Assembly (NCBI RefSeq): GCF_012926615.1
Contig: NZ_JABBNU010000010.1
Location: 114,629 to 178,628 of the forward strand
Reading direction: 5' to 3'
DNA from: Marinigracilibium pacificum
Lineage (GTDB): Bacteria; Bacteroidota; Bacteroidia; Cytophagales; Cyclobacteriaceae
DNA length: 64,000 bases
The notes beneath the pieces are model-generated. The model was not told the DNA's origin. It worked only from the letters and a program-made list of their open reading frames with translations, and did no database searches. Below, piece by piece: positions 4,100 to 46,664 of the stretch. Numbering within the stretch: the first letter of the stretch is position 1; each line of letters begins with the position of its first letter. The position numbers were made by a program, and so were the translations under genes.

Positions 4100-4345
4100 A
4101 ATTAATTGGTTGATTGAAAAATTGAAAAGCGGTGTGAAATTAATACGTTATGATTGGAATTCAATGAGAAATAATAAAAGTATCGGATAAGTTTTACCTT
4201 TAAATTGATTAACAAACTGAATTACCGAACCGCTATTAATTAATCCTTAATCAACTATTAAAAATTCATCTTGATGTTACAAAATCTTTCTTATTTGACT
4301 ATTCTATCCCTATCTTTATCCATTATTAAACCATGAATTTAAACC

Positions 4346-5710: not shown

Positions 5711-5719
5711 AACCAGATA

Positions 5720-5995: not shown

Positions 5996-6120
5996 AAAAA
6001 TATATTAAGGTTTAAATTCAATTGTGATTGCAATTTATAATATAAATATAAAAAAGTAATTCATTAAATCAATAGCAAAGCATTCTTCACATAATTGAAA
6101 ATCATTGTATGAGTCCAAAA

Positions 6121-9049: not shown

Positions 9050-12000
9050 ATGCTATCAAACCTGATTAAATTTGAATTTTATTACCAAAGAAAGCAATTA
9101 ACATTAGTTGTTTTATCTCTGGTATTCATGCTTATTGGTTTACGTTTGGGCAGCCAGGGATTTTCTCCTGCTGATGTAAACTATGATTCATTTTACCAAA
9201 TTGGTTATATAACCGGAATCATGACACTGGGAATCCCCTTTATAGTTATGTTCTTTACAATCAGCGGTATAATTAGAGATAAAAAGCACCATTTTGAACA
9301 AATCATTTATAGTACATCTGTAAATAAGTCCCAATATTTCTTCAGCAGATTATCAGGAATACTTGTTTTTAGCATATTATGTTTTAGTCCATTTCTGATT
9401 GGCTTTTATCTGGGCACATTTTACCCTGGCTTAGATCCTGAAAAAATTTCCGGTTTCAATTTCTATAGCTATTTCAGCAATTGGTTCATTTTTATAATTC
9501 CGAATGTATTCATTTGCACTGCATTTATATTTACTGTATCACTTTTAAGCAAAAATGCTTTAGCTACATATGTAACAGGAATTTTGATCTATGCTATTTA
9601 TATGATGAGCTCATTAGTATTGAATTCACCAATAATGGCCCAATCAATACCTTCAACTCCTGAAGGACTCATGATTGCATCATTGGCTGATCCGTTTGGT
9701 CTGGCTGCCTTCTTTGAACAAACTCAATATTGGACTCCTTTTCAAAAAAATAATCAACCGATACAGTTCGTAGGATTCTTATTATGGAACAGAGTGATCT
9801 GGTTACTCATATCCATTGTGATTCTATATGTGGGCTACAATTATTTCTCATTTCGAAAAATCAATAAGAAATCTAAAAGAAATAAAATCAAAACAGAGCC
9901 AATTCCAAGTGTATCTTATAATTCGGTTTCACCAAACCAGTCGTTAATGATGAAATTTCTGATTATGAAATCTTTAATCAAATCAGATTTAAGCTTCATT
10001 TTCAGAAACCTGCCATTTATAGGAATTATGATAATCTGGGTAACTATGGTGATCGCAGAAAACTATGCCAGAATTGTTGATGGAGGGGAATATAACAATA
10101 GTATGTACCCAACAACTAGTCTTTTAATTGGTCATTTCACAAACATCCTGACATTTATATCACTTATATTGATCGTTTTTTATAGTGGAGAATTAGCCTG
10201 GAGAAATAAGGAAAGCAAAATAAATGAAATTATTGATTCAACACCTGTTTCAAACTATCAGATATTCATTTCCAAGCTTATAGTCTTAATAAGCCTGCCT
10301 TTTTCATTAATTCTTTCAGGAATAATCTTATCAATTTGCTTTCAATTATATCTGGGTTTTTATGAATTTAAATTGCCCCTTTATCTTTCAACATTTTATT
10401 TTTATGGTTTAAGACTATTATTCTATTGTTTTTTGGCGATATTTATAACGCAGTTAGTGTCAAAAAAATATCTGGCAATCGGAATCACAGCTGTTTTAAT
10501 AATACTTTTTGGAAGTTTTCCTGAGTACATAGGTATTAATACTCCACTTTTAAAGCTAGGTCTGGCCCCTATACCATCATATACCAATTTAAATGGCTTT
10601 AGTATTTCCTCCGAAGCTTTTCATTATTATGCCTGGTACTGGATATCTTTTGGATTACTCCTGTCAATTATTGCGTTTCAATTATTAAACCGAGGATATT
10701 CATCTTTAAAATTCCGGTTTTCGAGTATCAAATGGAATAAAAATCGACGGGTATTTAGCATTCTGGTAATAATTAGCTTTGTGGCCTCTGCAACAACAAT
10801 TCACTATCAGGTAAATATCAAGAACAAATACCTTTCAGTTACTGACATACTTGATCGAAAGGAACAGTATGAAAGAAAATTTAAACAATACGACAGCTTG
10901 AAAAGATTGAATCATCAGTCATGGAAAACAGTTATTGACCTGTACCCTACCGAACATCGTTATTCCGTAAAAGCCAAACATCAATTACAAAATAAGAATG
11001 AAGTCCCGGTTTACAAGGCTTTTATTAACGAACGCACAAAACTTTCTCATCTGGAGATTGAAAGAGGTTTGATTACCGATTATGATTCAATCCATGGCAC
11101 CTACATAATAGAGTTCAGGGATGGAATTTTACCTGGCGAAATAATTACCATGGAATATGCTTTGGAAAAAACATCCACTGGTTTCGATCCTGATAGATCA
11201 ATAATTGAAAATGGTAGCTACATCACTTTCAGGGATTTTGAACTAATGCTAGGATATAGTAGTTCCAAAGAAATAGAAAATGCCTTTGAACGAAAAAAGC
11301 GAGGTTTACCAGCAAAATTGACTATCCATGGAGATGAGCATCTTATAACCAGTGAGAGTAATGTTGAAAAAATCCCTTTTGAAACAATTATTTCTACTGA
11401 GGATGATCAAACAGCTATTGGCCCCGGAGATTTAATTAATCAATGGACAAGCAATGGAAGAAATTATTATCAATATAAAACTCCAGTTAAAGTAATTCCA
11501 ACTGTAGGTTATTTTTCAGCTAGGTATGGTTCACAAATGGATAATCACAGGGGAATTTCTATCGAACTATTTTATCATCCTGAACATGTCTATAATATTG
11601 ACCTTATTGAAGAAAGCGTAAAGCATACATTGGATTATTGCCTTGATAATTTTGGTCCTTACCCTTTTGATCATATTAGAATTGCCGAAATACCGGGACA
11701 TTGGCCTTTTGGTGGATTTAGCCATCCTGGAACAATCAGTATGGTTGAGGATCGCCTGTATTTAGTTGATGTCAGAAATACAGAGACCTTCAATCTGGTA
11801 GCCAAACGTACAATTCATGAGGTGGCTCATCAATGGTGGGGAGGTATTTTGACACCTAAAATTGTTGAGGGAGGTTCAATTTTCGTAGAAGGTTTTGCAA
11901 AATATACTGAGTCGGTAGTTATAGAAAAAATGTATGGCAAAGGAGCAAGCTGGCAGATTGCAAAAACAGCAAATGACACTTATTTCAAAGGTAGAGCTTA

Positions 12001-12601
12001 TTCAACTAAACCAGAGCCTCCAATTTATCTGGAAAACAATGAATCTTATCTGGCTTATGGTAAGCATTACACTGTCTTGATGGCAGTCAGAGAATTAATT
12101 GGTGAAAATAAGGTTAACCAGGCGATGAAAACTTTAATTGACAGACATCGAAATAATAATGGCCTTAATTTGATATCAATTGAATTAATCGATGAACTTT
12201 ATAAAGTCACTCCTTCAGAATATCATAGTTTAATAGATGACTGGTTCAAAAAGACAATCCGATATGATCTCTCTATAAAAAGTTCAGATGTAAATAAACT
12301 TTCTGATGGAAGATATGAAGTCACTATAGACGTTTCTGCACATCGATATGAAACATTAGATACCGGAGAAGAAAAGAAGATAAAAATCAGCGAACCAATT
12401 CCGGTTGGTTTATTCACTAAACACCCTTCATTGGTGTCAAACGATCAGGATATCTTATATTTTGAGTCCGAAACAATTATTGAAGGTGAGCAGAAAATGA
12501 AGATAATTGTTAATGACAGGCCTGAATTCATATCTATTGATCCGTATGGAGCACGATCTGACAAAAACATGTTTGATAATTTAATAAAAGTATCAGAATA
12601 G
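9050..12601 (+). CDS. ABC-2 type permease (~13 TM) fused to C-terminal M1-family zinc aminopeptidase domain
   Basis: N-terminal ~590 aa polytopic membrane region. C-terminal ~600 aa carries HEVAHQWWG (HExxH) followed by VEGFAKYTE, the M1/gluzincin zinc-ligand pattern. 4-nt gap to ABC ATPase indicates an operon. Confidence 0.75.
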   Translation: MLSNLIKFEFYYQRKQLTLVVLSLVFMLIGLRLGSQGFSPADVNYDSFYQIGYITGIMTLGIPFIVMFFTISGIIRDKKHHFEQIIYSTSVNKSQYFFSRLSGILVFSILCFSPFLIGFYLGTFYPGLDPEKISGFNFYSYFSNWFIFIIPNVFICTAFIFTVSLLSKNALATYVTGILIYAIYMMSSLVLNSPIMAQSIPSTPEGLMIASLADPFGLAAFFEQTQYWTPFQKNNQPIQFVGFLLWNRVIWLLISIVILYVGYNYFSFRKINKKSKRNKIKTEPIPSVSYNSVSPNQSLMMKFLIMKSLIKSDLSFIFRNLPFIGIMIIWVTMVIAENYARIVDGGEYNNSMYPTTSLLIGHFTNILTFISLILIVFYSGELAWRNKESKINEIIDSTPVSNYQIFISKLIVLISLPFSLILSGIILSICFQLYLGFYEFKLPLYLSTFYFYGLRLLFYCFLAIFITQLVSKKYLAIGITAVLIILFGSFPEYIGINTPLLKLGLAPIPSYTNLNGFSISSEAFHYYAWYWISFGLLLSIIAFQLLNRGYSSLKFRFSSIKWNKNRRVFSILVIISFVASATTIHYQVNIKNKYLSVTDILDRKEQYERKFKQYDSLKRLNHQSWKTVIDLYPTEHRYSVKAKHQLQNKNEVPVYKAFINERTKLSHLEIERGLITDYDSIHGTYIIEFRDGILPGEIITMEYALEKTSTGFDPDRSIIENGSYITFRDFELMLGYSSSKEIENAFERKKRGLPAKLTIHGDEHLITSESNVEKIPFETIISTEDDQTAIGPGDLINQWTSNGRNYYQYKTPVKVIPTVGYFSARYGSQMDNHRGISIELFYHPEHVYNIDLIEESVKHTLDYCLDNFGPYPFDHIRIAEIPGHWPFGGFSHPGTISMVEDRLYLVDVRNTETFNLVAKRTIHEVAHQWWGGILTPKIVEGGSIFVEGFAKYTESVVIEKMYGKGASWQIAKTANDTYFKGRAYSTKPEPPIYLENNESYLAYGKHYTVLMAVRELIGENKVNQAMKTLIDRHRNNNGLNLISIELIDELYKVTPSEYHSLIDDWFKKTIRYDLSIKSSDVNKLSDGRYEVTIDVSAHRYETLDTGEEKKIKISEPIPVGLFTKHPSLVSNDQDILYFESETIIEGEQKMKIIVNDRPEFISIDPYGARSDKNMFDNLIKVSE

Positions 12602-12618
12602 ATCTTTAAAAAAATCAA

Positions 12619-12652
12619 CTAAGGCATCATTTGGGTGCCTTAGTTAGTTTTA
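12619..12652. terminator. rho-independent terminator (convergent gene pair)
   Basis: Hairpin CTAAGGCA-tcatttggg-TGCCTTAG followed by a T-rich tract. Confidence 0.5.
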
Positions 12653-12901
12653 CCCAATTCTAGACTCAGAATACAGGTCATATGCTGCAATTAATGACTC
12701 CCTTCCGGTAGATTCCCCATAAGGTTCATACTGGCTAATTTTATCTCTTGATTCAGCATATACTGGCTTATAAACCATGTCAGCTTCATCCCAGATGATA
12801 AGCATGAAATGATAACTCAGTTTGCTTAAACGGCCTTCTTCCAACCAGTTATCAAATTGTTCTTCATCAAGTGATTTTGGAAACCCCGCACCGTCAAACA
12901 T
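12650..12901 (-). CDS. hypothetical small protein
   Basis: 83-aa ORF with no recognisable motif. Confidence 0.35.
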   Translation of the reverse strand: MFDGAGFPKSLDEEQFDNWLEEGRLSKLSYHFMLIIWDEADMVYKPVYAESRDKISQYEPYGESTGRESLIAAYDLYSESRIG

Positions 12902-12975
12902 ATCAATAATATTTATCTAATAATAATTGACCGAAAATTAGAAATAACCACAATATCGAGCAACAAATATTATAT

Positions 12976-13635
12976 CTAAATCAAATTATCATTCTGAGTC
13001 ATAATTAAAGAATCTAACTCCTCATTTAACTTCATAGCCTTTTTATATAAATAAATATGAGCATCTAACTCATTAATACTGAATATGAAATAATTTTTGA
13101 TTAATAAATTACCATCTATGGAACTGATTGCTTCACCTTTTTCATAATCAATTTGATTAACAATTAAAGGAAAGTAATTTTCATCAAGTGCCTGTAAATG
13201 ATTTTGTTGAGCTTCATCAATTACATTATATAGTTTGTATAATCTGGTTAGCTTTCTTTTAAGTGAAAGGTCAGTTATTAGCTTCAAATCACCACTATTA
13301 ATCATAGACCTGTAGGTAATATCATTCGGTGTAAAAAAATAATAATTGCCGATTTCCATAGCATACATAACTAGAGAATCAATAGATACAGTTGGCTTTT
13401 GATACAATTGTGAAGCCCTGATCATATTTTCCTGCTTACTTATACTATTACTGATATTTTTCTCTAAAAGTGAACGGTCTTCCTCTAGTTCATTTAAAAA
13501 TTCCCTGTAATAACCATTTAAAATATCTCTTTCTTTTTTTGAATCTGCCTGTGTGTTAAGCCAGAATGCAATTGATACACCAACAATTACAATTAATAAT
13601 TCGATTAGGTAATTGAAAATTTTACTTTTATTCAT
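12976..13635 (-). CDS. hypothetical membrane-anchored protein (single N-terminal TM, coiled-coil-rich)
   Basis: N-terminal helix LIELLIVIVGVSIAFWL. Remainder hydrophilic. No catalytic motif. Confidence 0.45.
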   Translation of the reverse strand: MNKSKIFNYLIELLIVIVGVSIAFWLNTQADSKKERDILNGYYREFLNELEEDRSLLEKNISNSISKQENMIRASQLYQKPTVSIDSLVMYAMEIGNYYFFTPNDITYRSMINSGDLKLITDLSLKRKLTRLYKLYNVIDEAQQNHLQALDENYFPLIVNQIDYEKGEAISSIDGNLLIKNYFIFSINELDAHIYLYKKAMKLNEELDSLIMTQNDNLI

Positions 13636-13731
13636 TCCAATGATCGTGATTTACAAATAAAATATACTTTAATTTTACCAACCACGATAAATAATTTTAA
13701 AAATTCTTGGCCTTAAATCAATTATTGAAGG

Positions 13732-13986
13732 TTATCTGTCAATCCAGGCTATTTTCACAATTTCATCAGTATCAATCCTGAACTCTCCAAATCTTGAAGA
13801 TCCATTTACAGTAATTGCCGGTGGCAGGGCTGGTACAACTAAGCCATCATACTCGATTTTTTCTGTGCCTTCAACTTCATGGCTAGCCAGCCAGACATCA
13901 ATAACACTTCCATTCTTCTTTATTATCTGCAATCTGGAGCCAATCGGAACCTTTTCAATAGATTTTTTTACTTCTTCCTGTGTCAT
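13732..13986 (-). CDS. hypothetical small protein
   Basis: 84-aa ORF. No motif. Confidence 0.35.
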   Translation of the reverse strand: MTQEEVKKSIEKVPIGSRLQIIKKNGSVIDVWLASHEVEGTEKIEYDGLVVPALPPAITVNGSSRFGEFRIDTDEIVKIAWIDR

Positions 13987-14052
13987 GTTTTTATTATCAG
14001 AACTAATAATTCCTGGCTGTTGTTTTAATAAATTTACTCAGACTATCAGGAA

Positions 14053-14712
14053 TCAACCTGGTAATCTCTTCCTTATCCACTTAATCTGACCATTATGATT
14101 TGACTCATGTTCGCATACATGAAACCACTTACAATAATTATTTGTGGGCCCCCAATACCAATCTTCGTCTACAGCCAAAAGCCAATCATCATCCCTTCTT
14201 TTGAATTCATCAATAGTATTTTGTCTCACTTCAGTAAGAATATCTATATAATAAGTAAGCTTATGTCCATTAATCTTATTTCTGGCAGTTTCCCCTAAAT
14301 TCATTGCGACATCCCATTGATCTTTAATCTCCTGATCCCAGGTACCCCATTTCATATTATCGAATGTATTCAATTGATAATACCTTTCTGTAGCCGCCAA
14401 ATGCAATAACATGGCTCCAATTGAATTCGAATCTTTATCAAAATGAAAATCCAGCTGGTCTTCGTTTAATTCCTTTACAGAATTTAAGACTGCACCTCTC
14501 ATCCAGTTCATCATTGAATACATTGAACCTATATGAGGAGAAAATCCTTCCTTTGGACCAATGATATTTACATTATCAGGATCAAAATTATTGGCCTTAT
14601 CATCACTCTTAGCAAACATATTTAGAGGAAAGGAAGCCAAAGACATTGTTAAGACTCCGGTTGATGTCATCATAAATTTCCTTCTGGAAACTGAACTGTT
14701 ATTTTTTTTCAT
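14053..14712 (-). CDS. DinB/YfiT-like (DinB_2) metal-dependent protein with twin-arginine-like signal
   Basis: SRRKFMMTSTGVLT twin-arginine-like N-terminus. HLAATERYY ... CEHESNHNGQI resembles the DinB_2 His triad. Confidence 0.5.
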   Translation of the reverse strand: MKKNNSSVSRRKFMMTSTGVLTMSLASFPLNMFAKSDDKANNFDPDNVNIIGPKEGFSPHIGSMYSMMNWMRGAVLNSVKELNEDQLDFHFDKDSNSIGAMLLHLAATERYYQLNTFDNMKWGTWDQEIKDQWDVAMNLGETARNKINGHKLTYYIDILTEVRQNTIDEFKRRDDDWLLAVDEDWYWGPTNNYCKWFHVCEHESNHNGQIKWIRKRLPG

Positions 14713-33386: not shown

Positions 33387-34997
33387 ATGCCTGTAACAAG
33401 AAATGCCCTAATCAGATACAAAACCATTGATAATTGCCTTAGAAACAGACAAAAAAGATGGACTTTGGATGATTTAATTAATGTCTGCTCTGAAGCATTA
33501 TATGAATTTGAAGGAATTGATAAAGGTGTTAGTCGTCGAACTGTGCAAATGGATATTCAAATGATGCGCAGTGAAAAACTTGGTTATAATGCGCCCATCA
33601 TTGTAGTAGACAGGAAGTATTACACTTATAAAGATCCCGAATACTCGATCACTAATATTCCATTGACAGATAAAGACCTGAACAAACTCACAGAAGTGAC
33701 AAATATTTTAAAACAATTTAAAGGGTTTTCGCATTTCAAAGAATTATCAGGAATGGTACAAAAGTTGGAAGACAAGATACATGTATCCAAAACAAATGAG
33801 CATCCAATTATTGATCTTGAGAAAAATGAAAATTTAAAAGGTTTAGAATATATTGATCCGGTTTATAAAGCAATTCTTAATAAAAAATCACTTTCACTGG
33901 AATATCAATCATTTAAGGCCAGAAAGGCAAATACGTTTAAATTCCATCCGGCATTATTGAAGGAATTTAGAAATCGTTGGTTCGTTTTAGGAAAAAGAAA
34001 TCAAAACTCAGGATATGTCCTTTTAGCGTTAGACCGAATCAATAGTCTAGAAATAGGCGAAACAAGCTGCATTAACTTTGATCAAAATGAAATAGCCAAC
34101 TATTTCAAGCATGTGATAGGTGTGAGCACCGGCGGAATATTGCAAGAAGTAATTTTGTTAGTTGATCATAGTAATGCTCCTTATGTATTAACAAAGCCTA
34201 TTCACCACAGTCAAGAGGTAATAAACATATCTGATGAAGGAGTAACAATAAAATTAAATGTCCAGCTAAATTTTGAATTAGAAAGGGAGATCTTAGGTTT
34301 TGGAGATCGAATGAAAGTAATTTCTCCTCCCCGGTTAAGATCAATTATAAAACAACGGTTAAATCATGCTATTGATTTATATACTACGGAGTTAAATGAA
34401 CAAAAGCTTCACAATTATAAACCACGATTAGAGCACAAAGGATCTATAATCACAAATTATGTATTCAGTCGTAAAGAGATAGGTCAAATAGGAAGAATAA
34501 TTCAGTATTACCAAAACACCAAAACACCAAAACTGAAAAATATTGATAATTTAATTGATGAAATCCCTGATCTGACCAAAATAATTTTAAACTTCAATTT
34601 GAAAAGAATAATAGAGTCTATTTCTGAAAAATGGGAAATCTGTAATACTTATTTAAACTTAAAACCAGAAACAACAACAGATAAAATAAAGTGGCATCAA
34701 GATCAAATTATATATAAATATGAGGATGCTATAGATAAGATATTCACCATTTTTATTCATCTGGATGAAGTAAATATTGAAAATGGATGTTTATCAATAA
34801 TTCAAGGATCACATAAACAAGTTCATACAAAAGAGAAAATTGAAATCATATCTTCGAGTAGTATTCCTTCAAACTGTGAAGTAAATGCAGGAGGAATTCA
34901 AATTGTGAAGTCTGGAATAATTAGAAGATATAATAGTTCTGAAATTAACCGTATCAGAAGGACAATTCGAATTGACATAAAAGAAGTTGACGATTAA
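33387..34997 (+). CDS. WYL-domain transcriptional regulator (HTH-WYL-WCX, PafBC-like) fused to C-terminal PhyH-like (phytanoyl-CoA dioxygenase-fold) domain
   Basis: N-terminal wHTH (VSRRTVQMDIQMMRSEKLGYNAPIIV). WYL core (FRNRWFVLGKR...LALDRINSLEI). C-terminal KWHQD ... ENGCLSIIQGSHK PhyH-like motifs, but the distal His position appears to be Tyr (IIRRYNSSEINR). Confidence 0.65.
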   Translation: MPVTRNALIRYKTIDNCLRNRQKRWTLDDLINVCSEALYEFEGIDKGVSRRTVQMDIQMMRSEKLGYNAPIIVVDRKYYTYKDPEYSITNIPLTDKDLNKLTEVTNILKQFKGFSHFKELSGMVQKLEDKIHVSKTNEHPIIDLEKNENLKGLEYIDPVYKAILNKKSLSLEYQSFKARKANTFKFHPALLKEFRNRWFVLGKRNQNSGYVLLALDRINSLEIGETSCINFDQNEIANYFKHVIGVSTGGILQEVILLVDHSNAPYVLTKPIHHSQEVINISDEGVTIKLNVQLNFELEREILGFGDRMKVISPPRLRSIIKQRLNHAIDLYTTELNEQKLHNYKPRLEHKGSIITNYVFSRKEIGQIGRIIQYYQNTKTPKLKNIDNLIDEIPDLTKIILNFNLKRIIESISEKWEICNTYLNLKPETTTDKIKWHQDQIIYKYEDAIDKIFTIFIHLDEVNIENGCLSIIQGSHKQVHTKEKIEIISSSSIPSNCEVNAGGIQIVKSGIIRRYNSSEINRIRRTIRIDIKEVDD

Positions 34998-35794: not shown

Positions 35795-35817
35795 ATAGAA
35801 ACCAAAGAAATAATAAA

Positions 35818-35845
35818 GGTGCTGAGATTTCAGCGCCTTTTTTTT
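35818..35845 (+). terminator. rho-independent terminator after yebC
   Basis: GGTGCTGAgatttcAGCGCC followed by TTTTTTTT. Confidence 0.7.
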
Positions 35846-36323
35846 ATAGCATTATTAACTCATCAATTTCCCGTTGATAATCAGCTTGTAAATCCTCGTG
35901 AAGTTTTTTATTGACTTTGATTATCCTGTTTAAAAGCCTCTCATACATATTAAAAATCACTGTATATCCCCTCAAGTCAATTCTTGAATCTTTCATGGAT
36001 TTGGCAAAGTAGATGAGAACCTCGATCTCTGTTTGCTTATCTCCCGAATATCTAATGTATTTATTAAGGTTTCTCTGAACTTTTTGCAGGCTCTTCTTCG
36101 CATAATATAGATGTGTCTGATTTATTGAATCAAACTCATCATCAATTTCTTCTTTGATTAGCTCGATATAACCTTGCTCATTATGAGACTCAAATAAAAG
36201 GTAGGTCAATAATTCTTTATTCTCTTTCTTAAACCTTGCTAATCGCAGGCAGATATCAAATAGTTCCTGAGGATCGCGATAGCTTAGCTCCCCTTTTAGC
36301 TGGGCCATTGTTGCTGCTTTCAT
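35844..36323 (-). CDS. hypothetical cytoplasmic protein, downstream partner of the large membrane protein
   Basis: 159 aa. 40-bp gap after the 1388-aa gene on the same strand. No motif. Confidence 0.45.
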   Translation of the reverse strand: MKAATMAQLKGELSYRDPQELFDICLRLARFKKENKELLTYLLFESHNEQGYIELIKEEIDDEFDSINQTHLYYAKKSLQKVQRNLNKYIRYSGDKQTEIEVLIYFAKSMKDSRIDLRGYTVIFNMYERLLNRIIKVNKKLHEDLQADYQREIDELIML

Positions 36324-36362
36324 TTAATAAAGATAATTATCTTTTATAAAAGACAATTAAAT

Positions 36363-39300
36363 TTAACTGCTTGGTTTTAACAACCCTCCTATTCTAGGAA
36401 GGATAGCAAAAATTGCTGCCATCGAACTGATTAATGCATTTATATCACTTAAGAAACTAACTTCACCAAAGCCTATAAACACTACCAAACTGAATATTAA
36501 AATTATCAACACAGACGATGTTGTACTCCAGGTCCCCCCTTCTCTTTTCTCAAGCTCCCTAGCTAAAGCCTCATCGCTATCCACATTTGAAAGGACAAAA
36601 TTTGCAAAGCTCTCATTCATTAATCTTAAGGATGAATCATACACCAAGATTCCTTTATGAAGCAGATCAATGATGCCATCTACATTATTGGTATTTACAA
36701 ATTTATCTTTGGCTATATCATAAACTGTATATCTCTCTTCTTTGGAGAGTGAATTCCAAATTGAAAAATAATAAGGGTAAACTATCTCCTGGATCAAAAG
36801 AATAATTTGATCATCAGGTATATTTGGATTCCTCCTCCTTTTATCTTTCTCCAAAACCTCCTTGAGCTTTATTAAATATTTCCCATTATTTAGCTCATGT
36901 TCGTATATATTATCGATATTTTCAAGGTGTTTATTCCCTTCATACTCAAATGGTATTGTAAGTCGATAAAAACCTCCCAAAAGATGTAGCCAACGTTTAT
37001 AATCAGTTCGATAACGAAATAAGACTTCTTGCTTTTCAACTTTTGCTTCTTTCTTAAGCCGCATCACCTCTTCCACACTTTGCATGGATACTTCATAAAA
37101 ATTGAAAATTTTAGATGGGCTAATTTCTGAGGAGATAATTACCCTGATATGTGGATTGTCTGTTAAACAACTTAATAAATCTAATTTGATTTTATTAAAC
37201 TCATAATCATTGAACCCCAATTCAAAATGTTCAATATATACATAAATGATATCAATATTTCTGTCTTCACAAGGATCCTTAAGACATGATACAAGACCTT
37301 TTATAGCATTTTCGGGAGCAATCGCAATTTTATTCCAAAATGATATTGAATAATAATCTATTTCATTTTTACCATCCTCATTCTTATTATCGTCACCAGA
37401 CGCTAAACCTACTCCTTCAATCTTATTTTTAATATCCAGGAAATCAATATTAATAAATGATTGATTAAAATCATCTCTCAATTTATTTCTGATAACAAAC
37501 AAATGAGATGCGTTTACTCCATTTAAAAAAATGTTATTAAATGAACTCTCATCGAGAGGAGATTTTTTTAGCTTATCAATCAAAAATTGACCAATTGAAT
37601 CAAGATTATTGATAGGAACCAAATTTTTCGCATATGATTTATATCGAAAACCATATATTTTAAATATGGAATATCTAATGATTAAAAATATACCAAATAA
37701 AAATATGCCACAGAGAATGATATAATAAACCCAATTATAATTTTCATAGAATATTCTTCCTCTTAATAGTGAAATACCAATACTATTAGTAATGGTGTTT
37801 TTCTTATTTGAAGAATTGCTCTCTTTTAAATATGCAGATGTGTTAAATCCATAATCATTAAACTCTACTCTAATTGTTGAATATAACTCCTTAAAGAGCG
37901 AGTCAGAAACTGAATTCACCCCTGAATACTGGATTTTTTTAGGTATTACTAATTCATGAAACCCCGTACTTGCCATTTCTTCAACAAACCTTTTTGCTTC
38001 ATATACTGTATAGTCTCCAATGAGATTAGAATTTAAATTTCGGTATTGTTTTAACTTTTGGTTTGCCCATCCATTATTTTGTGCTTCAAGATTAGTTTTA
38101 TTTGCTGCGAAAAGTATTTCAGCTTCGATTTGATTACTTATTGAATAAAAAATCAATGTTGGGACTACAGAAATCAAAACAATAAAGCTGAATAAATAGG
38201 AAATATATACATTATATGAATTTTTTATATGCTTATTTTTTTTCGTTCTCTTATACACTAAAAAAAGAACTGCAACTCCAAAATATATCAAGTAAAGACC
38301 CAAATCAATTAATTCATATGATTGACCTAATATCATAACCTTTACTAATATGAAAAAGGCATAAATACTTCCCAAGATCATTAATAAATATCGCGCCTTT
38401 ATAAACGATGAGTTTCTGAAGAAAATTCGCTTATGAAAAGGGGCATTTGGAACTAATAAAACATAATGAATTATGATTGTTGTCGTAGTATTAATTATTA
38501 AATCAAGAAACAGAATAACAGGCTGATGCACAAACAACCACAAAGTCAGATTCAAAATGATTACACTGAGATTAATTAATATTAGATTTAAATAAATAGG
38601 TTTAACAACATTAACATCTTCAAGCTGCGGTCTTAGCCAATTAAATGAAAATACCTGCAACTTCAACATTGATCCTTTATGATTAAAAAAATAAAGCAAA
38701 TAATACACCACAAGCAAAATCATAAAGAAGAGAAATTGAAATACGAAAGTTGTCGATAATATTATACTCTTAGGAGAGTTGACATAATCACTACTAATAA
38801 ATGTGGCTAAAAATAAACCTTCAATCTCAGGAATACTTTTTACAAATACAAAATGATACTTACCATGATATTCAGTAATCAGATTTATTCCACTTTTCGA
38901 ACCTTCAATTCTGTGGATATTAAAATCTGCCTCATCAATAAAATTTTCATTCAGATTCCTCGATATATCAGAATGAAAAATCGTTCTTCCAGTATTGTCA
39001 AAAACACAATATCCATACCCTGGCTCTACAATAGGCTCCATTAATGTTGCAGATGAGAAACTAGTAGCTATCATGCTACTTTCACTTACTTCTCTTCCAA
39101 ATCCTATCTCATAATTACCGTCTGTTACAGACCTTATTGATTCCAGATAATAATCATCTTTGTATCTGAATCCACTATCGGTAAAAGGACCTGATACATA
39201 ATTTCGATGCTTTAAATTTGGAACGGTTACCGGGTTCACTTCGCTTGAAAAAACTAAATAAGGAGTTCCTGTTCTATCTGCTTTGAAAACAGCATTGAAA

Positions 39301-40529
39301 TAACTAAAAGGACTATCCTTAGACACCTCTTTAGGAATTTTCCATGCATATTTAAATAAATTATTATTGCCTTTAACTAAATGTATATCAGGTATCCTAG
39401 CTAAACTTAAACTATCAAATAAATCTAAATTCTTTGAGGCATTATCTAATTCTTTATACAATTGTGTAGTAATCTTATTATAAAGTAATTCCAAATTTTT
39501 ATCCTGAGCTTTCTTCTCATTAATTAAATGGTCTATGAGAAATATTGAAATCAATACCAACAATGAACCAGCAAATAATACAGATATACCTGAAAATAAA
39601 ATATCCCTTATATACAGTCTCTCAAAAGTACTCATTACTCTAAGCTTGATTAATGGTAGCCCAATGAGTAAAAGTATTACTCCGATGACTGCAATTGTAA
39701 GAAACTGTACAGACACCTGTCTTTTGGAGTTATTCATTTTTTCGTCATCAACAAACCCTGACAAAATAACCTCCTCATTTCCACTAACTTCAATTCTTGT
39801 ATTAAAGGTTAGGTATTTTGATGCCCCCAGATCAACCTTAAATACTTCTTTGTTTTTCAATAACCCTAAGGAATCTCCAAAAGACAATATGCTACCTCCA
39901 GGTCGATTTGAGTAAAGCACATTTTGATTACTACCGTCAATCTGTGATATTAAAATAAAATCAAATACGTCTTTTCTTTCAATAAGATCAGACTTAAATA
40001 ACTTATTATAATTAATAAAACTGAATACTATAATTGGAATATTAGATATATTTTTCTTCTTAGATTCTAACAGCCTATCATATTTTATCTTTATACTATC
40101 CTCTTTGATAAGCCTAATTATTTCATCTGATTTATTAATTTTTTCTATATAAATTAGTTGTAACTGCTCATTTCCAAAATGAGCGTATTTATTTATCAAA
40201 TCTTTAGTATCATCAATTCCCTTCTCAGAATTAACTGATGTATATAGTAATATACCATTTATACCAAAACCAACATTAATATCACTATAGGTTAGATTAT
40301 TATCAGTCATTCCTTTGGTAAAAGAATTTTTTAACCTAGTCTCAAATATCCTTTTATTACCTTCAATTACCTGATGGAAATTTCTACTCATTTGAGTTAG
40401 CACCCTGAAATTATCATTTATTATTTCACGTTCTTTATCTTTTACAAAGACTAGAAAGTAATACATGAATACTAATGATACCAGTAATACTGTTGTAATA
40501 ATCACCCAACCTTTATTTGATATTTTCAT
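36363..40529 (-). CDS. large (1388 aa) polytopic membrane protein of unknown function
   Basis: N-terminal TM, then ~250 aa hydrophilic, 2-3 TM, ~250 aa hydrophilic (Cache-like sensor?), a cluster of ~8 TM (aa ~590-960), a ~380 aa hydrophilic domain and two C-terminal TM. No Walker, HK, GGDEF, EAL or other recognisable catalytic motifs. Confidence 0.6.
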   Translation of the reverse strand: MKISNKGWVIITTVLLVSLVFMYYFLVFVKDKEREIINDNFRVLTQMSRNFHQVIEGNKRIFETRLKNSFTKGMTDNNLTYSDINVGFGINGILLYTSVNSEKGIDDTKDLINKYAHFGNEQLQLIYIEKINKSDEIIRLIKEDSIKIKYDRLLESKKKNISNIPIIVFSFINYNKLFKSDLIERKDVFDFILISQIDGSNQNVLYSNRPGGSILSFGDSLGLLKNKEVFKVDLGASKYLTFNTRIEVSGNEEVILSGFVDDEKMNNSKRQVSVQFLTIAVIGVILLLIGLPLIKLRVMSTFERLYIRDILFSGISVLFAGSLLVLISIFLIDHLINEKKAQDKNLELLYNKITTQLYKELDNASKNLDLFDSLSLARIPDIHLVKGNNNLFKYAWKIPKEVSKDSPFSYFNAVFKADRTGTPYLVFSSEVNPVTVPNLKHRNYVSGPFTDSGFRYKDDYYLESIRSVTDGNYEIGFGREVSESSMIATSFSSATLMEPIVEPGYGYCVFDNTGRTIFHSDISRNLNENFIDEADFNIHRIEGSKSGINLITEYHGKYHFVFVKSIPEIEGLFLATFISSDYVNSPKSIILSTTFVFQFLFFMILLVVYYLLYFFNHKGSMLKLQVFSFNWLRPQLEDVNVVKPIYLNLILINLSVIILNLTLWLFVHQPVILFLDLIINTTTTIIIHYVLLVPNAPFHKRIFFRNSSFIKARYLLMILGSIYAFFILVKVMILGQSYELIDLGLYLIYFGVAVLFLVYKRTKKNKHIKNSYNVYISYLFSFIVLISVVPTLIFYSISNQIEAEILFAANKTNLEAQNNGWANQKLKQYRNLNSNLIGDYTVYEAKRFVEEMASTGFHELVIPKKIQYSGVNSVSDSLFKELYSTIRVEFNDYGFNTSAYLKESNSSNKKNTITNSIGISLLRGRIFYENYNWVYYIILCGIFLFGIFLIIRYSIFKIYGFRYKSYAKNLVPINNLDSIGQFLIDKLKKSPLDESSFNNIFLNGVNASHLFVIRNKLRDDFNQSFINIDFLDIKNKIEGVGLASGDDNKNEDGKNEIDYYSISFWNKIAIAPENAIKGLVSCLKDPCEDRNIDIIYVYIEHFELGFNDYEFNKIKLDLLSCLTDNPHIRVIISSEISPSKIFNFYEVSMQSVEEVMRLKKEAKVEKQEVLFRYRTDYKRWLHLLGGFYRLTIPFEYEGNKHLENIDNIYEHELNNGKYLIKLKEVLEKDKRRRNPNIPDDQIILLIQEIVYPYYFSIWNSLSKEERYTVYDIAKDKFVNTNNVDGIIDLLHKGILVYDSSLRLMNESFANFVLSNVDSDEALARELEKREGGTWSTTSSVLIILIFSLVVFIGFGEVSFLSDINALISSMAAIFAILPRIGGLLKPSS

Positions 40530-41483: not shown

Positions 41484-41915
41484 ATGTTACTTAACTATAT
41501 TGTAGCTTTAAATATGATTGAAGAAAAGCTCCAATATAGAAATATCAGACCAACAGCAATGCGTATATTGGTTCTAAAGCAATTACTTGACAGTGATTCT
41601 GCAATGAGTCTTTCTGATCTTGAAGAATCACTTGAAAACGCAGATAAAGCAACTCTTTACCGTACTCTTAAAAAATTTGAAGAAAATCAACTTATCCATA
41701 GCATCGACGATGGCTCCGGATCACTAAAATATGCTCCTTGCAATGAAAATTGTAACTGCGAAACAAATGACCAGCATGTCCATTTTCATTGTGAATCATG
41801 CCAAAAAACCTATTGCATAACAAATATTGGTATTCCTAATCTAAACCTGCCAAAAGGATTTATTCCATCATCAGCTAACATGGTCTTTAAAGGAAACTGT
41901 TCTTCATGTTCATGA
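41484..41915 (+). CDS. Fur-family (Fur/Zur-like) metalloregulator with C-terminal Cys/His cluster
   Basis: RPTAMRILVLKQLLDS...LYRTLKKFEENQLI winged helix. C-terminal CNENCNC...HFHCESCQKTYC. True start may be at 41514. Confidence 0.7.
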   Translation: MLLNYIVALNMIEEKLQYRNIRPTAMRILVLKQLLDSDSAMSLSDLEESLENADKATLYRTLKKFEENQLIHSIDDGSGSLKYAPCNENCNCETNDQHVHFHCESCQKTYCITNIGIPNLNLPKGFIPSSANMVFKGNCSSCS

Positions 41916-41958: not shown

Positions 41959-42267
41959 GTGAAGATAATTGCACACATATTGATTGCACTAACACTCATT
42001 CTTTCTTTTATCCCTTGTGATGATAGACATGATTCTCATAATGAGACTGAAGTGGCACTATATGATTCAGCAGATCACGACCATAACCAGGATGTCGAAA
42101 ACTGCTCCCCTTTATGTATTTGCAATTGTTGTCATTCACACTTAATCATCAATCAATTTAAATTCTTCCCTAAAATACAAAATTTCAATTCTGATTTTAA
42201 TTCTTTTTATTTTACCCAATTAATCGAAGGTTTTTCTGGCCTTCCACTCCAACCTCCCAGGGCATAA
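41959..42267 (+). CDS. small Cys/His-rich membrane-anchored protein preceding czcA (putative metal-binding)
   Basis: N-terminal helix. DDRHDSHNETE...DHDHNQDVENCSPLCICNCCHSH. Confidence 0.5.
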   Translation: MKIIAHILIALTLILSFIPCDDRHDSHNETEVALYDSADHDHNQDVENCSPLCICNCCHSHLIINQFKFFPKIQNFNSDFNSFYFTQLIEGFSGLPLQPPRA

Positions 42268-42332: not shown

Positions 42333-45300
42333 ATGATTAATAAAATCATTGAATTTTCTATTCATAATAAACTGGTCATTGGTTTACTAACCACCGGTAT
42401 GATTATAGCCGGCTTATGGAGCCTGACGAAGGTTCCATTAGACGCTGTTCCGGATATCACCAACAACCAGGTACAAATTATCACCCAGGCTCCCAATCTT
42501 GGTACAGAGGATATTGAACAGTTTATAACTTATCCGATCGAAATTGAAATGGCAAACCTGCCGGGAGTACTGGAAATCAGGTCTATATCAAGGTTCGGAT
42601 TATCGCTGGTAACTCTTGTATTCGAAGATGATATGGAAACATACCTCCCCCGACAGCTTGTCTCTGAAAAGTTAATAGCAGTATCCAAAGAAATTCCGGA
42701 AGGATTCGGAAAGCCGGATATCGGACCTATATCAACAGGATTAAGTGAAATTTATCAGTATACACTCAGTGTTGATCCAAAGTTCAAGGATAAATACTCT
42801 ATTACTGAGCTTAGGACTATACAAGACTGGATTATCAAAAGGCAAATGGCAATGGTTCCGGGAGTTGTTGAAGTCAATGCCTTTGGTGGAAAGATCAAGC
42901 AATATGAGGTTTCCGTTGATCCTGAAGAGCTTAAATCTATTGGCCTGACTATTACAGATATATTTACAGCTCTGGAAGAAAACAATCAAAATACCGGTGG
43001 AGCCTATATTGAAAAAGATCATCAGGCGAATTTTATCCGTGGAGAAGGACTTGCCCGAAGTTTATCAGACATTGAAAATATCGTGATAAAAAATATCGGG
43101 GGAATTCCGATTACTATCAAGGACATCGCTCAGGTAAAATTTGGTCATGCAATAAGATATGGTGCCCTTACTAAAAATGGAAATGGAGAAACTGTTGGTG
43201 GCATGATCTTGATGCTCAAAGGAGCAAATTCAAATAAGGTAATTGAGGCAGTAAAAGATAGAATGGATGAAATTCAACGTTCATTACCTGAAGGAATCAC
43301 AATTGAGCCATTTCTTGATCGTAGCGAACTAATTTCAAACACAACAAGTACTATAAGCAGAAACCTAATCGAAGGTGCCTTGATTGTCATTTTCATTCTG
43401 GTTTTACTTTTGGGCAACTGGCGCGGAGGACTTATTGTAGCTTCTACCATTCCCCTTTCCCTCCTTTTTGCATTTATTCTTATGAATGTATTCGATGTCT
43501 GGGCAAATTTGATGAGTCTTGGAGCAATCGATTTTGGTATTATCGTTGACGGAGCAGTTATAATTGTAGAGGGTACAGTTTTTCTTCTTCACCAAAAAAT
43601 CTTAAACAAGAATACCCTCAATAAGGAAGAAAGAAACAAGACAGCCTACGAAGCTTCAAGTAAAATGATGAATGCGGCTTTCTTTGGCCAGCTAATTATC
43701 CTGATCGTGTTTATACCGATCCTGGCATTGGAAGGTGTGGAAGGAAAAATGTTCCAGCCGATGGCATTAACTTTTATGTTTGCCATGATTGGAGTTATGT
43801 TACTTTGTCTCACATACGTCCCTATGATGTCTTCTTTATTTCTTAGGGTAAAACAAAATGAAAAACCCTCTTTTGGAGACAAAATCGTAACATTTTTAGA
43901 AAAAAAGTATGAACAAGCCTTAACGAAAGCATTAAAAATACCTGGGTTTATTATTGGAGTTGCAATTTCTCTGTTAGTAATATCTGTATTACTGTTTTCA
44001 CGCATGGGTGGAGAGTTTATACCTCAATTAGATGAAGGAGACATTGCTTTTCATATCATTTTAAAACCCGGAAGTTCATTGACTGAATCTGTTAAAGCAT
44101 CAACGAAAGTTGAGAAAATATTACTTGATAATTTTCCGGAAATTGAACAAGTAATTTCAAGGTTTGGTGTTGCTGATGTTCCGACAGATCCAATGCCAAT
44201 GGACATTGCCGATTGTTTTATTATTCTAAAACCAAAAGATGAATGGGTTTCGGCCAAATCAAAAGAGGACCTGATCAACAAGATCAAAGAAAAGATTGAA
44301 ATAATCCCTGGTCTGACATACGAGTTTACACAACCTATCGAAATGAGGTTCAACGAGTTAATTACCGGAGTTAGAGAGGATATTGCTGTAAAACTATATG
44401 GTGAAGATCTGGAACTACTAGCCTCTAAAGCCGAAGAAATGGGGAAAATTATTTCGTCTATTGATGGTGTCGGGGATATGCGTGTAGAAGCAACAAGTGG
44501 ACTTCCACAGATAACTATTAACTATAATCGATCGAAATTAGCTCAATACGGCATCAATATAGATGAAGTTAATACGACAATTCAAACTGCCTTTGCAGGA
44601 CGTGAAGCCGGTGTAATTTTCGAAGGTGAAAAACGGTTTGACCTGGTTGTCAGGCTTAATGAAAAGAACCGGCAGAATATTGATGACATTAAAAATCTGT
44701 ATATCAACCTTCCTAATGGGTCGCAAATTCCTTTAAAGGAAGTAACAACAATAAGTTACCAGCCAGGCCCCATGCAGATAAGTAGAGATAATACAAATAG
44801 AAGAGTTTATGTTGGTATTAATGTCAGAGGAAGGGATATAAAATCATTAGTTGAAGAAATAAAAGCTACACTAAACGACCGTCTTGACCTGCCACCTGGA
44901 TACTACATTCGGTATGGTGGTGCGTTTGAAAACTTCGACAGAGCTTTTAAAAGACTAAAGTTGGTTGTCCCGATTGCACTGATTTTAATCTTCATTTTAA
45001 TCTTCTTTGCTTTAAATTCCATGAAGCAGACTTTCATGATTTATGGAGCGATTCCAATGGCTGCAATTGGAGGAATACTAGCTCTCTGGCTTAGAGATAT
45101 GCCTTTTAGTATATCTGCAGGAGTTGGATTTGTGGTGCTTTTTGGTGTGGCAGTTCTGAATGGACTCGTTCTTATAAGCAGCTGGAATGAAATAAAGACA
45201 AGCGAAAGCTTTAACCTAACAGAGAGAATCATGGTTGGTACCAAAAGAAGAATAAGACCAATTTTATTAACAGCATTGACTGATATTCTTGGATTCTTGC

Positions 45301-46664
45301 CAATGGCAATCTCAAAAGGTTCCGGTGCTGAGGTGCAACGACCATTGGCAACTGTAGTTATCGGAGGAATGATCAGTGCAACTCTACTAACTCTATTTGT
45401 ACTTCCTATTCTTTATCAATGGCTCGAAAAGAAATATTCTTTCAATAAAAAGACTACACTTTTAAGTATTGCTGTGATTATGCTATTTATTAATCCACTT
45501 ACTATAAAGGCTCAGGATTCTGACTCACTGTATCAAATTAGTCTGGATTCAGCAATAAACAGGGCAATACAATTATATCCTGAAATTAAGTCATCTAGAA
45601 TGGAAATTGACAAACAGGAATCTCTCAAGAAAACAGCCTGGGAGCTTGGTAACACTCAGTTTTATACTGCCGGAGAAGAAATTGGCAATAATCAGGACGG
45701 TGTAACTACTGTATTTGGAATTCAGCAGCAAAACATTAATATCTTTGGAGTTCCTTCCAAATCAAAGCTACAAACAAAGCAAATCAACTTTGCTGAAGCA
45801 GCATTGGAACTATCATCCAGACAAATCGAGTTAGAAGTTAAACAGCAGTATATCAGATTGTTTAGATCAATCAAAGTATTGAATCTTTACAATTCACTTG
45901 ACTCAGTATTTAATGAATTCGAAAGAGCTGCCAAAATCAGGTATGAAACCGAAGAATCATCTCGATTGGAATACCTCGCAGCTGTAAATCAGGCAAAACA
46001 AATAAAGATCCAAAAAGATCAAAGGCTTTATGACCTGATGATTGAGCTTTCAAAATTCAATCTCTGGATGGTAAGTGACACCATTTTTACAGTGCAAACA
46101 CAAATTATCGAACAAAGTAATGATATCTTGACTGGTCAGGTCATTCCGAATGATCATCCAATACTAAATCTGGCAAGAAAAGAAAATGAAGTTGCAGAAC
46201 AGCAGGTAAATACACTACGTGCTGATTTACTACCCAAATTAAATGTTCAATATGGCTGGCAGGAGATTAACAATCAGTCAGGATTTTACCAGTATCAATT
46301 TGGTCTTTCAATTCCTCTGTTTTTTATGCAGAATAGTGGTAAAATTCAAGCTGCAAAAATCAGCCAGCTACAGACTGAACAAAATCTGGTTCAAAAAGAA
46401 ATGGAACTTACTACCACCCTTTCTGCATCATACAATGAATTTCTAAAATGGAAAAGGTCCTGGGAATATTACAATGATGAAGCTCTGGAATTAGCTGAGG
46501 AGCAATTCAATGGGGCTGTATTGTCATATCGTGAAGGTGCAATTGATTATGTAGCCTTTTTACAAAATATACAAAGTGCCATTTCAATAGAAATAGATGC
46601 CTGGAATGCATATGAAATGTATATGACATCAAAATTCAAGGTTGAATATTTATTGAACAAATAA
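42333..46664 (+). CDS. czcA: CzcA/CusA-family heavy-metal efflux RND pump fused to a C-terminal TolC/CzcC-like outer-membrane factor domain
   Basis: First ~1040 aa: 12-TM HME-RND (VPLDAVPDITNNQVQI, AIDFGIIVDGAVIIVEG). Last ~400 aa is coiled-coil rich with OEP-like heptads after an extra signal-like segment (SIAVIMLFINPLTIKAQD). Confidence 0.75.
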   Translation: MINKIIEFSIHNKLVIGLLTTGMIIAGLWSLTKVPLDAVPDITNNQVQIITQAPNLGTEDIEQFITYPIEIEMANLPGVLEIRSISRFGLSLVTLVFEDDMETYLPRQLVSEKLIAVSKEIPEGFGKPDIGPISTGLSEIYQYTLSVDPKFKDKYSITELRTIQDWIIKRQMAMVPGVVEVNAFGGKIKQYEVSVDPEELKSIGLTITDIFTALEENNQNTGGAYIEKDHQANFIRGEGLARSLSDIENIVIKNIGGIPITIKDIAQVKFGHAIRYGALTKNGNGETVGGMILMLKGANSNKVIEAVKDRMDEIQRSLPEGITIEPFLDRSELISNTTSTISRNLIEGALIVIFILVLLLGNWRGGLIVASTIPLSLLFAFILMNVFDVWANLMSLGAIDFGIIVDGAVIIVEGTVFLLHQKILNKNTLNKEERNKTAYEASSKMMNAAFFGQLIILIVFIPILALEGVEGKMFQPMALTFMFAMIGVMLLCLTYVPMMSSLFLRVKQNEKPSFGDKIVTFLEKKYEQALTKALKIPGFIIGVAISLLVISVLLFSRMGGEFIPQLDEGDIAFHIILKPGSSLTESVKASTKVEKILLDNFPEIEQVISRFGVADVPTDPMPMDIADCFIILKPKDEWVSAKSKEDLINKIKEKIEIIPGLTYEFTQPIEMRFNELITGVREDIAVKLYGEDLELLASKAEEMGKIISSIDGVGDMRVEATSGLPQITINYNRSKLAQYGINIDEVNTTIQTAFAGREAGVIFEGEKRFDLVVRLNEKNRQNIDDIKNLYINLPNGSQIPLKEVTTISYQPGPMQISRDNTNRRVYVGINVRGRDIKSLVEEIKATLNDRLDLPPGYYIRYGGAFENFDRAFKRLKLVVPIALILIFILIFFALNSMKQTFMIYGAIPMAAIGGILALWLRDMPFSISAGVGFVVLFGVAVLNGLVLISSWNEIKTSESFNLTERIMVGTKRRIRPILLTALTDILGFLPMAISKGSGAEVQRPLATVVIGGMISATLLTLFVLPILYQWLEKKYSFNKKTTLLSIAVIMLFINPLTIKAQDSDSLYQISLDSAINRAIQLYPEIKSSRMEIDKQESLKKTAWELGNTQFYTAGEEIGNNQDGVTTVFGIQQQNINIFGVPSKSKLQTKQINFAEAALELSSRQIELEVKQQYIRLFRSIKVLNLYNSLDSVFNEFERAAKIRYETEESSRLEYLAAVNQAKQIKIQKDQRLYDLMIELSKFNLWMVSDTIFTVQTQIIEQSNDILTGQVIPNDHPILNLARKENEVAEQQVNTLRADLLPKLNVQYGWQEINNQSGFYQYQFGLSIPLFFMQNSGKIQAAKISQLQTEQNLVQKEMELTTTLSASYNEFLKWKRSWEYYNDEALELAEEQFNGAVLSYREGAIDYVAFLQNIQSAISIEIDAWNAYEMYMTSKFKVEYLLNK

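Follow-up and report, generated by a model that had tools for sequence, protein, structure and literature searches.

In a 64,000-nt window of Marinigracilibium pacificum DNA (the whole stretch that was analysed, with a GC content of about 33%, to whose positions all window coordinates refer), we have examined a giant gene of 1388 aa and the 159-aa gene lying directly downstream. The reading that we favour, with moderate confidence, is that the giant gene encodes a one-polypeptide transmembrane (TM) receptor with a nucleotide-independent STAND-like switch, and that it belongs to a large, uncharacterised family of the Bacteroidota. From the N-terminus, its architecture runs through TM1, block 1, a TM2-3 hairpin, a dCache domain, six TM helices, a third block, TM10, a nucleotide-binding domain (NBD) with helical bundle and winged helix, and a terminal TM hairpin.

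Kyte-Doolittle hydropathy gives about 12 TM segments (residues 6-32, 270-302, 307-337, 587-617, approximately 641-660, approximately 661-693, 709-737, 738-760, 771-801, 931-961, 1332-1358 and 1359-1384), the last two forming a C-terminal pair, and four hydrophilic blocks between them (33-269, 338-586, 802-930 and 962-1331). A preliminary description, made from the sequence alone, had pictured a 1388-aa multi-domain protein with about 12 TM segments, a C-terminal TM pair and a large cytoplasmic block (about 380 aa), and the open reading frame (ORF) and the hydropathy profile, with a block of about 370 aa, bear this picture out. Because of the lysine- and arginine-rich loops at residues 694-712 and 760-770 and of the parity of the TM helices, the Cache domain and block 3 are predicted to lie outside the cell and residues 962-1331 inside, a topology consistent with the positive-inside rule. 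The cytoplasmic side of the TM core carries, in addition to these two loops, a WLRP motif (W631, P634). Moreover, the order of TM segments and soluble blocks is identical in 14 diverse family members.

The extracytoplasmic block 2 at residues 338-586 is, judging from its predicted fold and from Pfam matches in relatives, a dCache (double Cache/PDC) ligand-binding domain. When the N-terminal AlphaFold2 (AF2) model (residues 1-960; mean predicted local distance difference test (pLDDT) score 63, better in the beta-rich parts) was compared with the PDB by Foldseek, about 50 dCache domains were matched at probability 1.00 and target TM-scores of 0.5-0.66, including those of the chemoreceptors Mlp24, Mlp37, PctA/B/C, CtaA, McpH, TlpA and PscC and of the kinases DctB and the HK1S-Z group. 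Pfam dCache_1 (PF02743) is detected in 11 of 34 relatives (best E 5.3e-11) and covers the whole TM3-TM4 block in one of them, P0236; the giant protein itself gives no dCache_1 match at E<0.1, and the relatives inspected score 18-26 bits against a 45-bit cut-off. In the model, TM3 extends as a long helix (307-373), to be followed by distal strands (394-491), proximal strands (505-579) and the helix of TM4, and the sequence carries R442-x-Y444 and the stretch GYGxCxFDxxGxxxFHSxxxRNLNENF. Block 1 consists of a stalk helix, a variable part of low confidence (71-167) and a five- to six-stranded beta module (166-261), which may be a degenerate Cache/PAS-like module; hhalign aligns it co-linearly, though weakly (E 0.008, probability 5%), with the half of block 2 that is nearer the membrane. 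Residues 33-165 are the least conserved within the subfamily described below and the second least across the family. Block 3 is at 13% identity across the family, and the hhalign comparison found no similarity between it and blocks 1 or 2.

On the cytoplasmic side, residues 962-1315 are, as far as the aligned columns and the predicted fold can tell, a diverged P-loop NTPase of AAA+/STAND type joined to a winged helix, that is, a NOD-like module. In the C-terminal AF2 model (residues 925-1388, pLDDT 73), an alpha/beta core of five strands is followed by a bundle of helices, then by a winged helix built as helix-helix-hairpin, and finally by the two long helices that make up the TM hairpin. All elements of an ASCE/AAA+/STAND core are present; 1- the alpha/beta core, 2- a strand, P-loop and helix, 3- a Walker B strand and 4- a sensor-1 strand, and so is the order of NBD, helical domain and winged helix that serves as one of the STAND criteria of Leipe et al. 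(2004). At the level of motifs, the statement in the preliminary description that the cytoplasmic block lacks Walker, histidine kinase, GGDEF/EAL, HD or peptidase signatures is true, with no Pfam or NCBIfam match and no GxxxxGK[ST] anywhere in the block. Its broader claim of no recognisable catalytic or signalling motif gives way to remote homology, which leads to the dCache domain in block 2 and to the P-loop NTPase with winged helix here. No Pfam match to NACHT, NB-ARC or AAA_16 was found in the giant protein or in the 34 relatives; the relatives give isolated weak matches to AAA_14/18/22 and Bac_DnaA, and a profile search against PDB sequences returned noise only, except for a P-loop match to a designed ATPase (E 0.008).

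What has become of the nucleotide-binding site can be seen when 110 full-length representatives are aligned. In the columns where many relatives have hhhhGLPxSGK[ST], the giant protein has NIFLNGVNASHLF, so that its Walker A is GVNASHLF, with Leu and Phe in place of Lys and Ser/Thr, and the strand-loop-helix geometry is preserved in the model (strand I1000-N1003, loop G1004-N1006, helix from A1007). The Walker A is canonical in 26 of the representatives, has GK followed by a residue other than Ser/Thr in 25 and only the Lys or Arg in 17, and is without Lys in the remaining 42. Since relatives have a canonical Walker A in this same column, the missing motif is a secondary loss; the alignment suggests that the family descended from active NTPases, and the copy in the giant protein is predicted to be ATPase-dead, with no NTP hydrolysis. 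Among the closer relatives that we call the GVNASH subfamily (about 35% overall identity), the consensus at this column is SFNNxhhxGVNASH, without Lys or Ser/Thr; positions N998, N999 and N1006 do not vary, and conservation is 90% or higher at G1004, V1005, A1007 and H1009. As the remodelled site is conserved throughout the subfamily, its loss does not look like decay, and we infer that it has retained a non-canonical role. The Walker B strand ends in the acidic E1100, at a column holding D or E in 60 of the 110 representatives; the [HN]FE that follows is found in 80 of the 110, and residues I1099 to E1103 are invariant in the GVNASH subfamily.

Conservation is highest in the winged helix. Its identity is 81% in the subfamily, versus 21-49% in the other blocks and 61% in the short linker that follows it, and 50% across 34 diverse members, versus 13-30% elsewhere; moreover, it is the only segment shared with the weakest relatives, and the TM core (19-25% identity) is among the least conserved parts. 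H1291, in the sequence LLHKG, is conserved in the GVNASH subfamily and might correspond to the MHD His of STAND winged helices. The winged helix has 6 Lys/Arg and 8 Asp/Glu, and its presumed recognition helix (VDGIIDLLHK) holds two Asp. Being net acidic, with an isoelectric point (pI) of 5.0, it is better understood as a protein-protein or intramolecular interface than as a DNA binder. The second most distinctive conserved element is the cytoplasmic TM2-3 loop with its motif GLPLIKLxVMSxxERLxxxD, in which P292 is invariant, K295, E303 and L305 are nearly so, and D309 is invariant among the closer relatives.

The family to which the giant protein belongs is large. When a profile of the C-terminal 464 residues was run exhaustively with HMMER over 1.84 billion cluster representatives, 3313 proteins (50%-identity clusters) were matched at E<=1e-3 and 979 at E<=1e-30; a word-index homologue search under-reported the family (14 relatives, 9 with a profile). 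Full-length members are mostly of 1250-1500 aa with the module at the C-terminus, and 109 of 155 sampled sequences reach at least 1150 aa with a block layout identical to that of the giant protein. The named members come from Echinicola, Reichenbachiella, Cyclobacterium, Roseihalotalea, Lunatibacter, Mangrovivirga, Chitinophagaceae and Niastella, all of them Bacteroidota, and public databases call them no more than "cache/PDC sensor domain-containing" or "hypothetical"; the giant protein itself is 100% identical to an entry from Marinigracilibium pacificum that bears the name "hypothetical" or "Cache domain-containing". No model in Pfam, NCBIfam or PADLOC covers any part of the family beyond the Cache domain, more than three quarters of each protein is without a model in Pfam or NCBIfam, and scans of these two databases gave no match for the giant or the 159-aa protein. 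No published description of a membrane architecture joining Cache to STAND/AAA+ was found in a full-text literature search. The preliminary description had foreseen that a remote-homology search might assign the blocks to a well-characterised family and so remove their novelty; the blocks do fall in well-known folds, yet their combination is not a characterised family.

If the giant protein is a receptor of this kind, its Cache domain or domains would bind a small molecule on the outer side of the membrane; the TM core, together with the conserved cytoplasmic loop between TM2 and TM3, would relay the signal to a NOD-like module held to the membrane at both ends. The module would then switch its conformation or oligomeric state as STAND proteins do, here as a pseudo-NTPase without NTP hydrolysis. 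The output would be non-enzymatic. It would come from the extremely conserved, acidic winged helix together with the TM hairpin next to it, which would either recruit a conserved partner protein or shift the membrane helices of the receptor itself; the 159-aa protein could be such a recruited partner, though not an obligate one.

Several points weigh against this reading. No output domain or interaction partner of the giant protein was found, and a signalling role is attributed by analogy with Cache proteins. Twelve TM helices are compatible with a transporter as well. The confidence of the C-terminal model is moderate (pLDDT 73) and that of the TM core low (pLDDT 40-60); the NBD reaches no better than marginal Foldseek E-values (7e-4 to 1e-2), and AAA+ initiators (DnaA, ORC) match it about as well as STANDs do; it may belong to STAND proper or to the initiator/Arch_ATPase-like clade. 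Finally, the distant members P0187 and P0014 lie in defence-like or mobile-looking neighbourhoods. A far-reaching form of the receptor reading, which we put forward as speculative and rather doubtful, would see in the family a new receptor class in which Cache directly controls a membrane-stapled NOD switch. Ligand-driven oligomerisation would in that case produce a resistosome-like channel or pore, or winged-helix partner recruitment, as output, distinct from two-component, chemotaxis, second-messenger and extracytoplasmic function (ECF) signalling, and many lineages, this one among them, would have converted the NTPase to a nucleotide-independent pseudo-enzyme.

Perhaps the giant protein is instead a ligand-gated or NTPase-regulated transporter or channel, in which the 12 TM helices form the pathway, Cache gates it from outside, the NOD module regulates it from inside and, in relatives with an intact P-loop, also energises it; we hold this to be unlikely. 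The seven TM helices between the Cache domain and the NBD, the want of an enzymatic output domain, the tethering of the NBD to the membrane at both ends and the resistance-nodulation-division (RND) efflux genes near the giant gene in 4 of 13 orthologous loci would all suit it. Yet neither the protein nor its relatives show similarity to any transporter family in Pfam, NCBIfam or the PDB along the TM4-TM9 core, which is poorly conserved, the NBD is AAA+/STAND-like rather than ABC-like, and an energising role is hard to reconcile with a P-loop lost in 42 of 110 representatives.

It is less probable still that the giant protein is an anti-phage or conflict STAND, whose NOD module would oligomerise when triggered and whose TM helices, especially the C-terminal hairpin, would disrupt the membrane as in bacterial NLR-like/Avs proteins with TM effectors. 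The fold and the two suggestive neighbourhoods of P0187 and P0014 fit such a role. However, most loci of the giant gene are housekeeping neighbourhoods with lineage-level synteny, searches of plasmids and phages gave no copy of it, and PADLOC-DB v2 gave only noise in 34 members (a Cmr5 match of E 1.4e-3 that falls on a TM segment and, in a single member, mad8 at 7e-3). Moreover, STANDs that detect phage do so in the cytoplasm, whereas the sensor of the giant protein is extracytoplasmic, and the Walker A Lys normally needed by STAND defence proteins is absent here. Thus, where the preliminary description spoke of a candidate for an undescribed sensor, transport or defence machine, the family is indeed undescribed and a sensor is the best of these options, but defence loses ground for want of PADLOC matches and of plasmid or phage copies.

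No greater likelihood attaches to an obligate two-gene system in which the 159-aa protein would be the cognate output partner, docking for example on the winged helix. The two genes are on the same strand and 39 nt apart (36324-36362), as the preliminary description, with its small gene about 40 bp downstream, had seen. Co-transcription is plausible in this window, because no terminator-like site lies in the gap and a strong hairpin, probably a bidirectional terminator (35815-35840), follows the 159-aa gene; no match to the Bacteroidota -7 motif TAnnTTTG was found in either upstream region, its window-wide counts being those of chance, as were those of a sigma-70 promoter scan. In 5 of the 13 orthologous loci, from three groups of genera, a member of the 159-aa family adjoins the giant gene and is read in the same direction; both gene orders occur (downstream in Marinigracilibium, Mangrovivirga and two Cyclobacterium species, upstream in Echinicola). 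In Cyclobacterium and Echinicola, the adjoining copies are divergent (about 130 bits versus 243), as specialised paralogues might be, and the winged helix and the 159-aa protein are both unusually conserved. Against this, the 159-aa family is far larger (at least 8000 clusters, Bacteroidota-wide, with 55-60% identity across Flavobacteriales, Chitinophagales and Cytophagales) and is also found beside unrelated genes in Fulvivirga and Flagellimonas; it is missing from 8 of the 13 loci and from beside all six more distant giant-family members examined. Furthermore, the four loci with RND efflux genes are all among the five with a 159-aa gene, and inherited synteny therefore explains part of the adjacency. 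The preliminary description had called the two genes co-operonic and had proposed a search for conserved neighbourhoods; co-transcription stands as plausible, partnership does not follow from 5 of 13 loci, and the 159-aa family is the only recurrent neighbour, with nothing shared family-wide. The 159-aa protein is thus possibly an optional (facultative) partner at most, not a defining component. As no neighbouring gene is conserved throughout the family (13 orthologous loci and six more distant members), the giant gene is a self-contained unit.

A membrane-tethered transcription factor, whose winged helix would bind DNA in the manner of ORC/Cdc6 or ToxR under Cache control, is very improbable. 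The winged-helix fold is the most conserved block and the STAND proteins MalT and AfsR are transcription factors, but the domain is acidic with two Asp in its recognition helix, it occupies the canonical NOD position with the TM hairpin directly after it, and Pfam finds no helix-turn-helix family. As for an artefact, namely a frameshift fusion of two or more genes or a non-coding chance ORF, the three ORFs (741 + 90 + 543 aa) called for the Mangrovivirga cuniculi orthologue are its one support, and it can practically be dismissed, because full-length collinear orthologues at 13 other genomic loci refute the concatenation by frameshift that the preliminary description had raised, the collinear genes of these loci and of 109 representatives span 1260-1480 aa, 1388 open codons would arise by chance with a probability of about 4e-44 (stop probability 0.069 per codon at the window composition), and the Mangrovivirga cuniculi assembly also splits an RND pump, so that the error is probably in that assembly.

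Table 1. Coordinates in the window of the two genes, of the downstream hairpin and of the parts of the giant protein.
Feature	Position	Strand	Basis or remark
Giant gene, 1388 aa	36363..40529	-	ORF list and translation
TM1, residues 6-32; N-terminus with K2 and K6 predicted cytoplasmic	40434..40514	-	Hydropathy; AF2 helix 5-73 runs into periplasmic stalk
Extracytoplasmic block 1, residues 33-269	39723..40433	-	AF2 secondary structure
TM2, short cytoplasmic loop and TM3, residues 270-337	39519..39722	-	Hydropathy; conserved columns in four alignments
Putative dCache (double Cache/PDC) ligand-binding domain, residues 338-586	38772..39518	-	Foldseek on AF2 model; Pfam dCache_1 in relatives
Membrane core TM4-TM9, residues 587-801	38127..38771	-	Hydropathy, loop charges, conserved columns
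Block 3, residues 802-930, predicted extracytoplasmic	37740..38126	-	TM parity; low pLDDT
TM10, residues 931-961, entering cytoplasmic module	37647..37739	-	Hydropathy; helix 9-34 of C-terminal model
Cytoplasmic linker and P-loop-type NBD, residues 962-1195, five-stranded alpha/beta core	36945..37646	-	
Remodelled Walker A NNIFLNGVNASHLF, residues 998-1011	37497..37538	-	Column alignment with relatives' hhhhGLPxSGK[ST]
Walker B strand and [HN]FE motif, IYVYIEHFE, residues 1095-1103	37221..37247	-	Model strand 1095-1100
Sensor-1-like strand IRVIISS, residues 1128-1134	37128..37148	-	Model strand; family column hhIIhSS
Helical bundle between NBD and winged helix, residues 1196-1250	36780..36944	-	AF2 secondary structure
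Winged-helix domain, residues 1251-1315	36585..36779	-	Helix-helix-hairpin in model
Amphipathic linker and TM11-TM12 hairpin, residues 1316-1388	36366..36584	-	Hydropathy; C-terminal model helices 394-430 and 433-459; family-wide conservation
159-aa gene	35844..36323	-	ORF list; downstream of giant gene, same strand
GC-rich hairpin, T-runs on both sides	35815..35840	.	Between 159-aa gene and convergent YebC gene

The 159-aa protein has no Pfam, NCBIfam, PHROG or PDB match, and it carries the strongly conserved motifs CLRL..FKK.NKELLTYLLFE and LHEDLQ.DY. Elsewhere in the 64 kb, no second copy of the giant gene was found, and nothing of use came from PADLOC or PHROGs when the window proteins were scanned. 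At 42333-46664 (+), a 1443-aa RND pump of AcrB/CzcA type (ACR_tran, 5-1030) is fused to a TolC-like OEP domain (1274-1442) and preceded by a Fur-family regulator and a DUF6660 gene (41484-41915, 41959-42267); the fusion of an inner-membrane pump with an outer-membrane factor is unusual, and it also occurs in both Mangrovivirga genomes. A 536-aa protein at 33387-34997 (+) combines WYL and WCX ligand-sensing regulator modules with a PhyH-type dioxygenase domain.

In the window as in other genomes, RND genes of heavy-metal type (a CzcA-like pump, a membrane-fusion protein and OEP) lie no further than about 8 kb from the gene pair, and their recurrence in Mangrovivirgaceae and Cyclobacterium may reflect ancestral synteny or a functional link. 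In Mangrovivirga cuniculi (CP028923), where the giant orthologue in its three ORFs and the nearby pump, split as 369 + 69 + 612 aa, occupy locus coordinates 2686-6976 and 11094-14226, the splits suggest assembly frameshift errors or pseudogenisation. In both Cyclobacterium species, the giant gene is immediately preceded, in its own orientation, by two large soluble ORFs (922 and about 1436 aa) without a Pfam match (locus coordinates 611-7705 and 646-7734); a tandem paralogue was considered here and rejected, the upstream 1437-aa ORF being soluble, without a Walker motif and without a match to the family hidden Markov model. P0187, whose P-loop is intact, lies near PLDc_2, a reverse transcriptase, two Holliday-junction-type endonuclease genes and a subtilase, and the surroundings of P0014 include a patatin gene and two tyrosine integrases.

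In prokaryotes, no extracellular sensor is more common than the Cache domain. NLR-type immunity and apoptosis are switched by STAND/NOD modules, whose sensing is normally cytoplasmic. A family of more than 3000 clusters that wires an outside Cache domain to a membrane-anchored NOD-like module would therefore add an output class to bacterial transmembrane signalling. In addition, the family would offer one receptor in a natural range of versions, both active and pseudo-NTPase, in which the role of the nucleotide cycle in a NOD switch could be probed, and the giant protein of the window now has a defined domain architecture with testable residues in the GVNASH site, the IEHFE motif, the winged helix and the TM2-3 loop.

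Compared with the dCache_1 receptors (PctA/B/C, Mlp24, McpH, TlpA, DctB and HK1S-Z), the giant protein shares the extracytoplasmic double Cache/PDC domain of about 250 aa, the two bracketing TM helices and the long stalk helix, and it retains the R-x-[WY]-[YF]-type signature and the D..G...H strand motif. It differs in having 12 TM helices instead of 2, a second and a third extracytoplasmic block and an AAA+/STAND-like module as cytoplasmic partner; no HAMP, MCPsignal, HisKA/HATPase, GGDEF/EAL, cyclase, kinase or phosphatase output was found in it or in the 34 relatives. In a census of Cache proteins (PMC4822843), the outputs are methyl-accepting chemotaxis proteins, histidine kinases, GGDEF/EAL, cyclases, serine/threonine kinases, PP2C and transcription factors, and the word "ATPase" occurs zero times, which places the combination of Cache with AAA+/STAND outside the known Cache output classes.

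The STAND NTPases (NB-ARC/NLR, CED-4/Apaf-1, Avs/bNACHT and MalT) have C-terminal repeat sensors, whereas the sensor of the giant protein is N-terminal and extracytoplasmic; its module is flanked by TM helices on both sides, has no effector domain and has lost the Walker A, as have about 40% of the representatives. The archaeal Arch_ATPase-type proteins PAB2304 (2qen) and SSO1545 (2fna) and the DnaA/ORC/Cdc6 clade are soluble and unconnected to membrane sensors, and sequence similarity to them is undetectable apart from the isolated weak Pfam matches in relatives mentioned above. In the KAP P-loop NTPases (e.g. RADAR RdrA), TM helices lie inside the NTPase domain, whereas those of the giant protein flank it and none falls within 962-1331. 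A precedent for a STAND-type module that is predicted to be catalytically inactive is given by the iSTAND components of the MoxR-vWA ternary conflict systems, which are frequent in Bacteroidetes and partly membrane-proximal (Kaur et al. 2020, PMC7159879). The iSTAND systems take their definition from an operon that includes MoxR and vWA genes and from N-terminal effector domains, whereas no MoxR or vWA neighbour of the giant gene was found in any locus examined, and Cache is mentioned neither in that paper nor in another large survey of bacterial STAND-centred systems. The dCache fold and the AAA+/STAND NOD fold are each known, and it is for their combination in one membrane protein that no earlier description was found.

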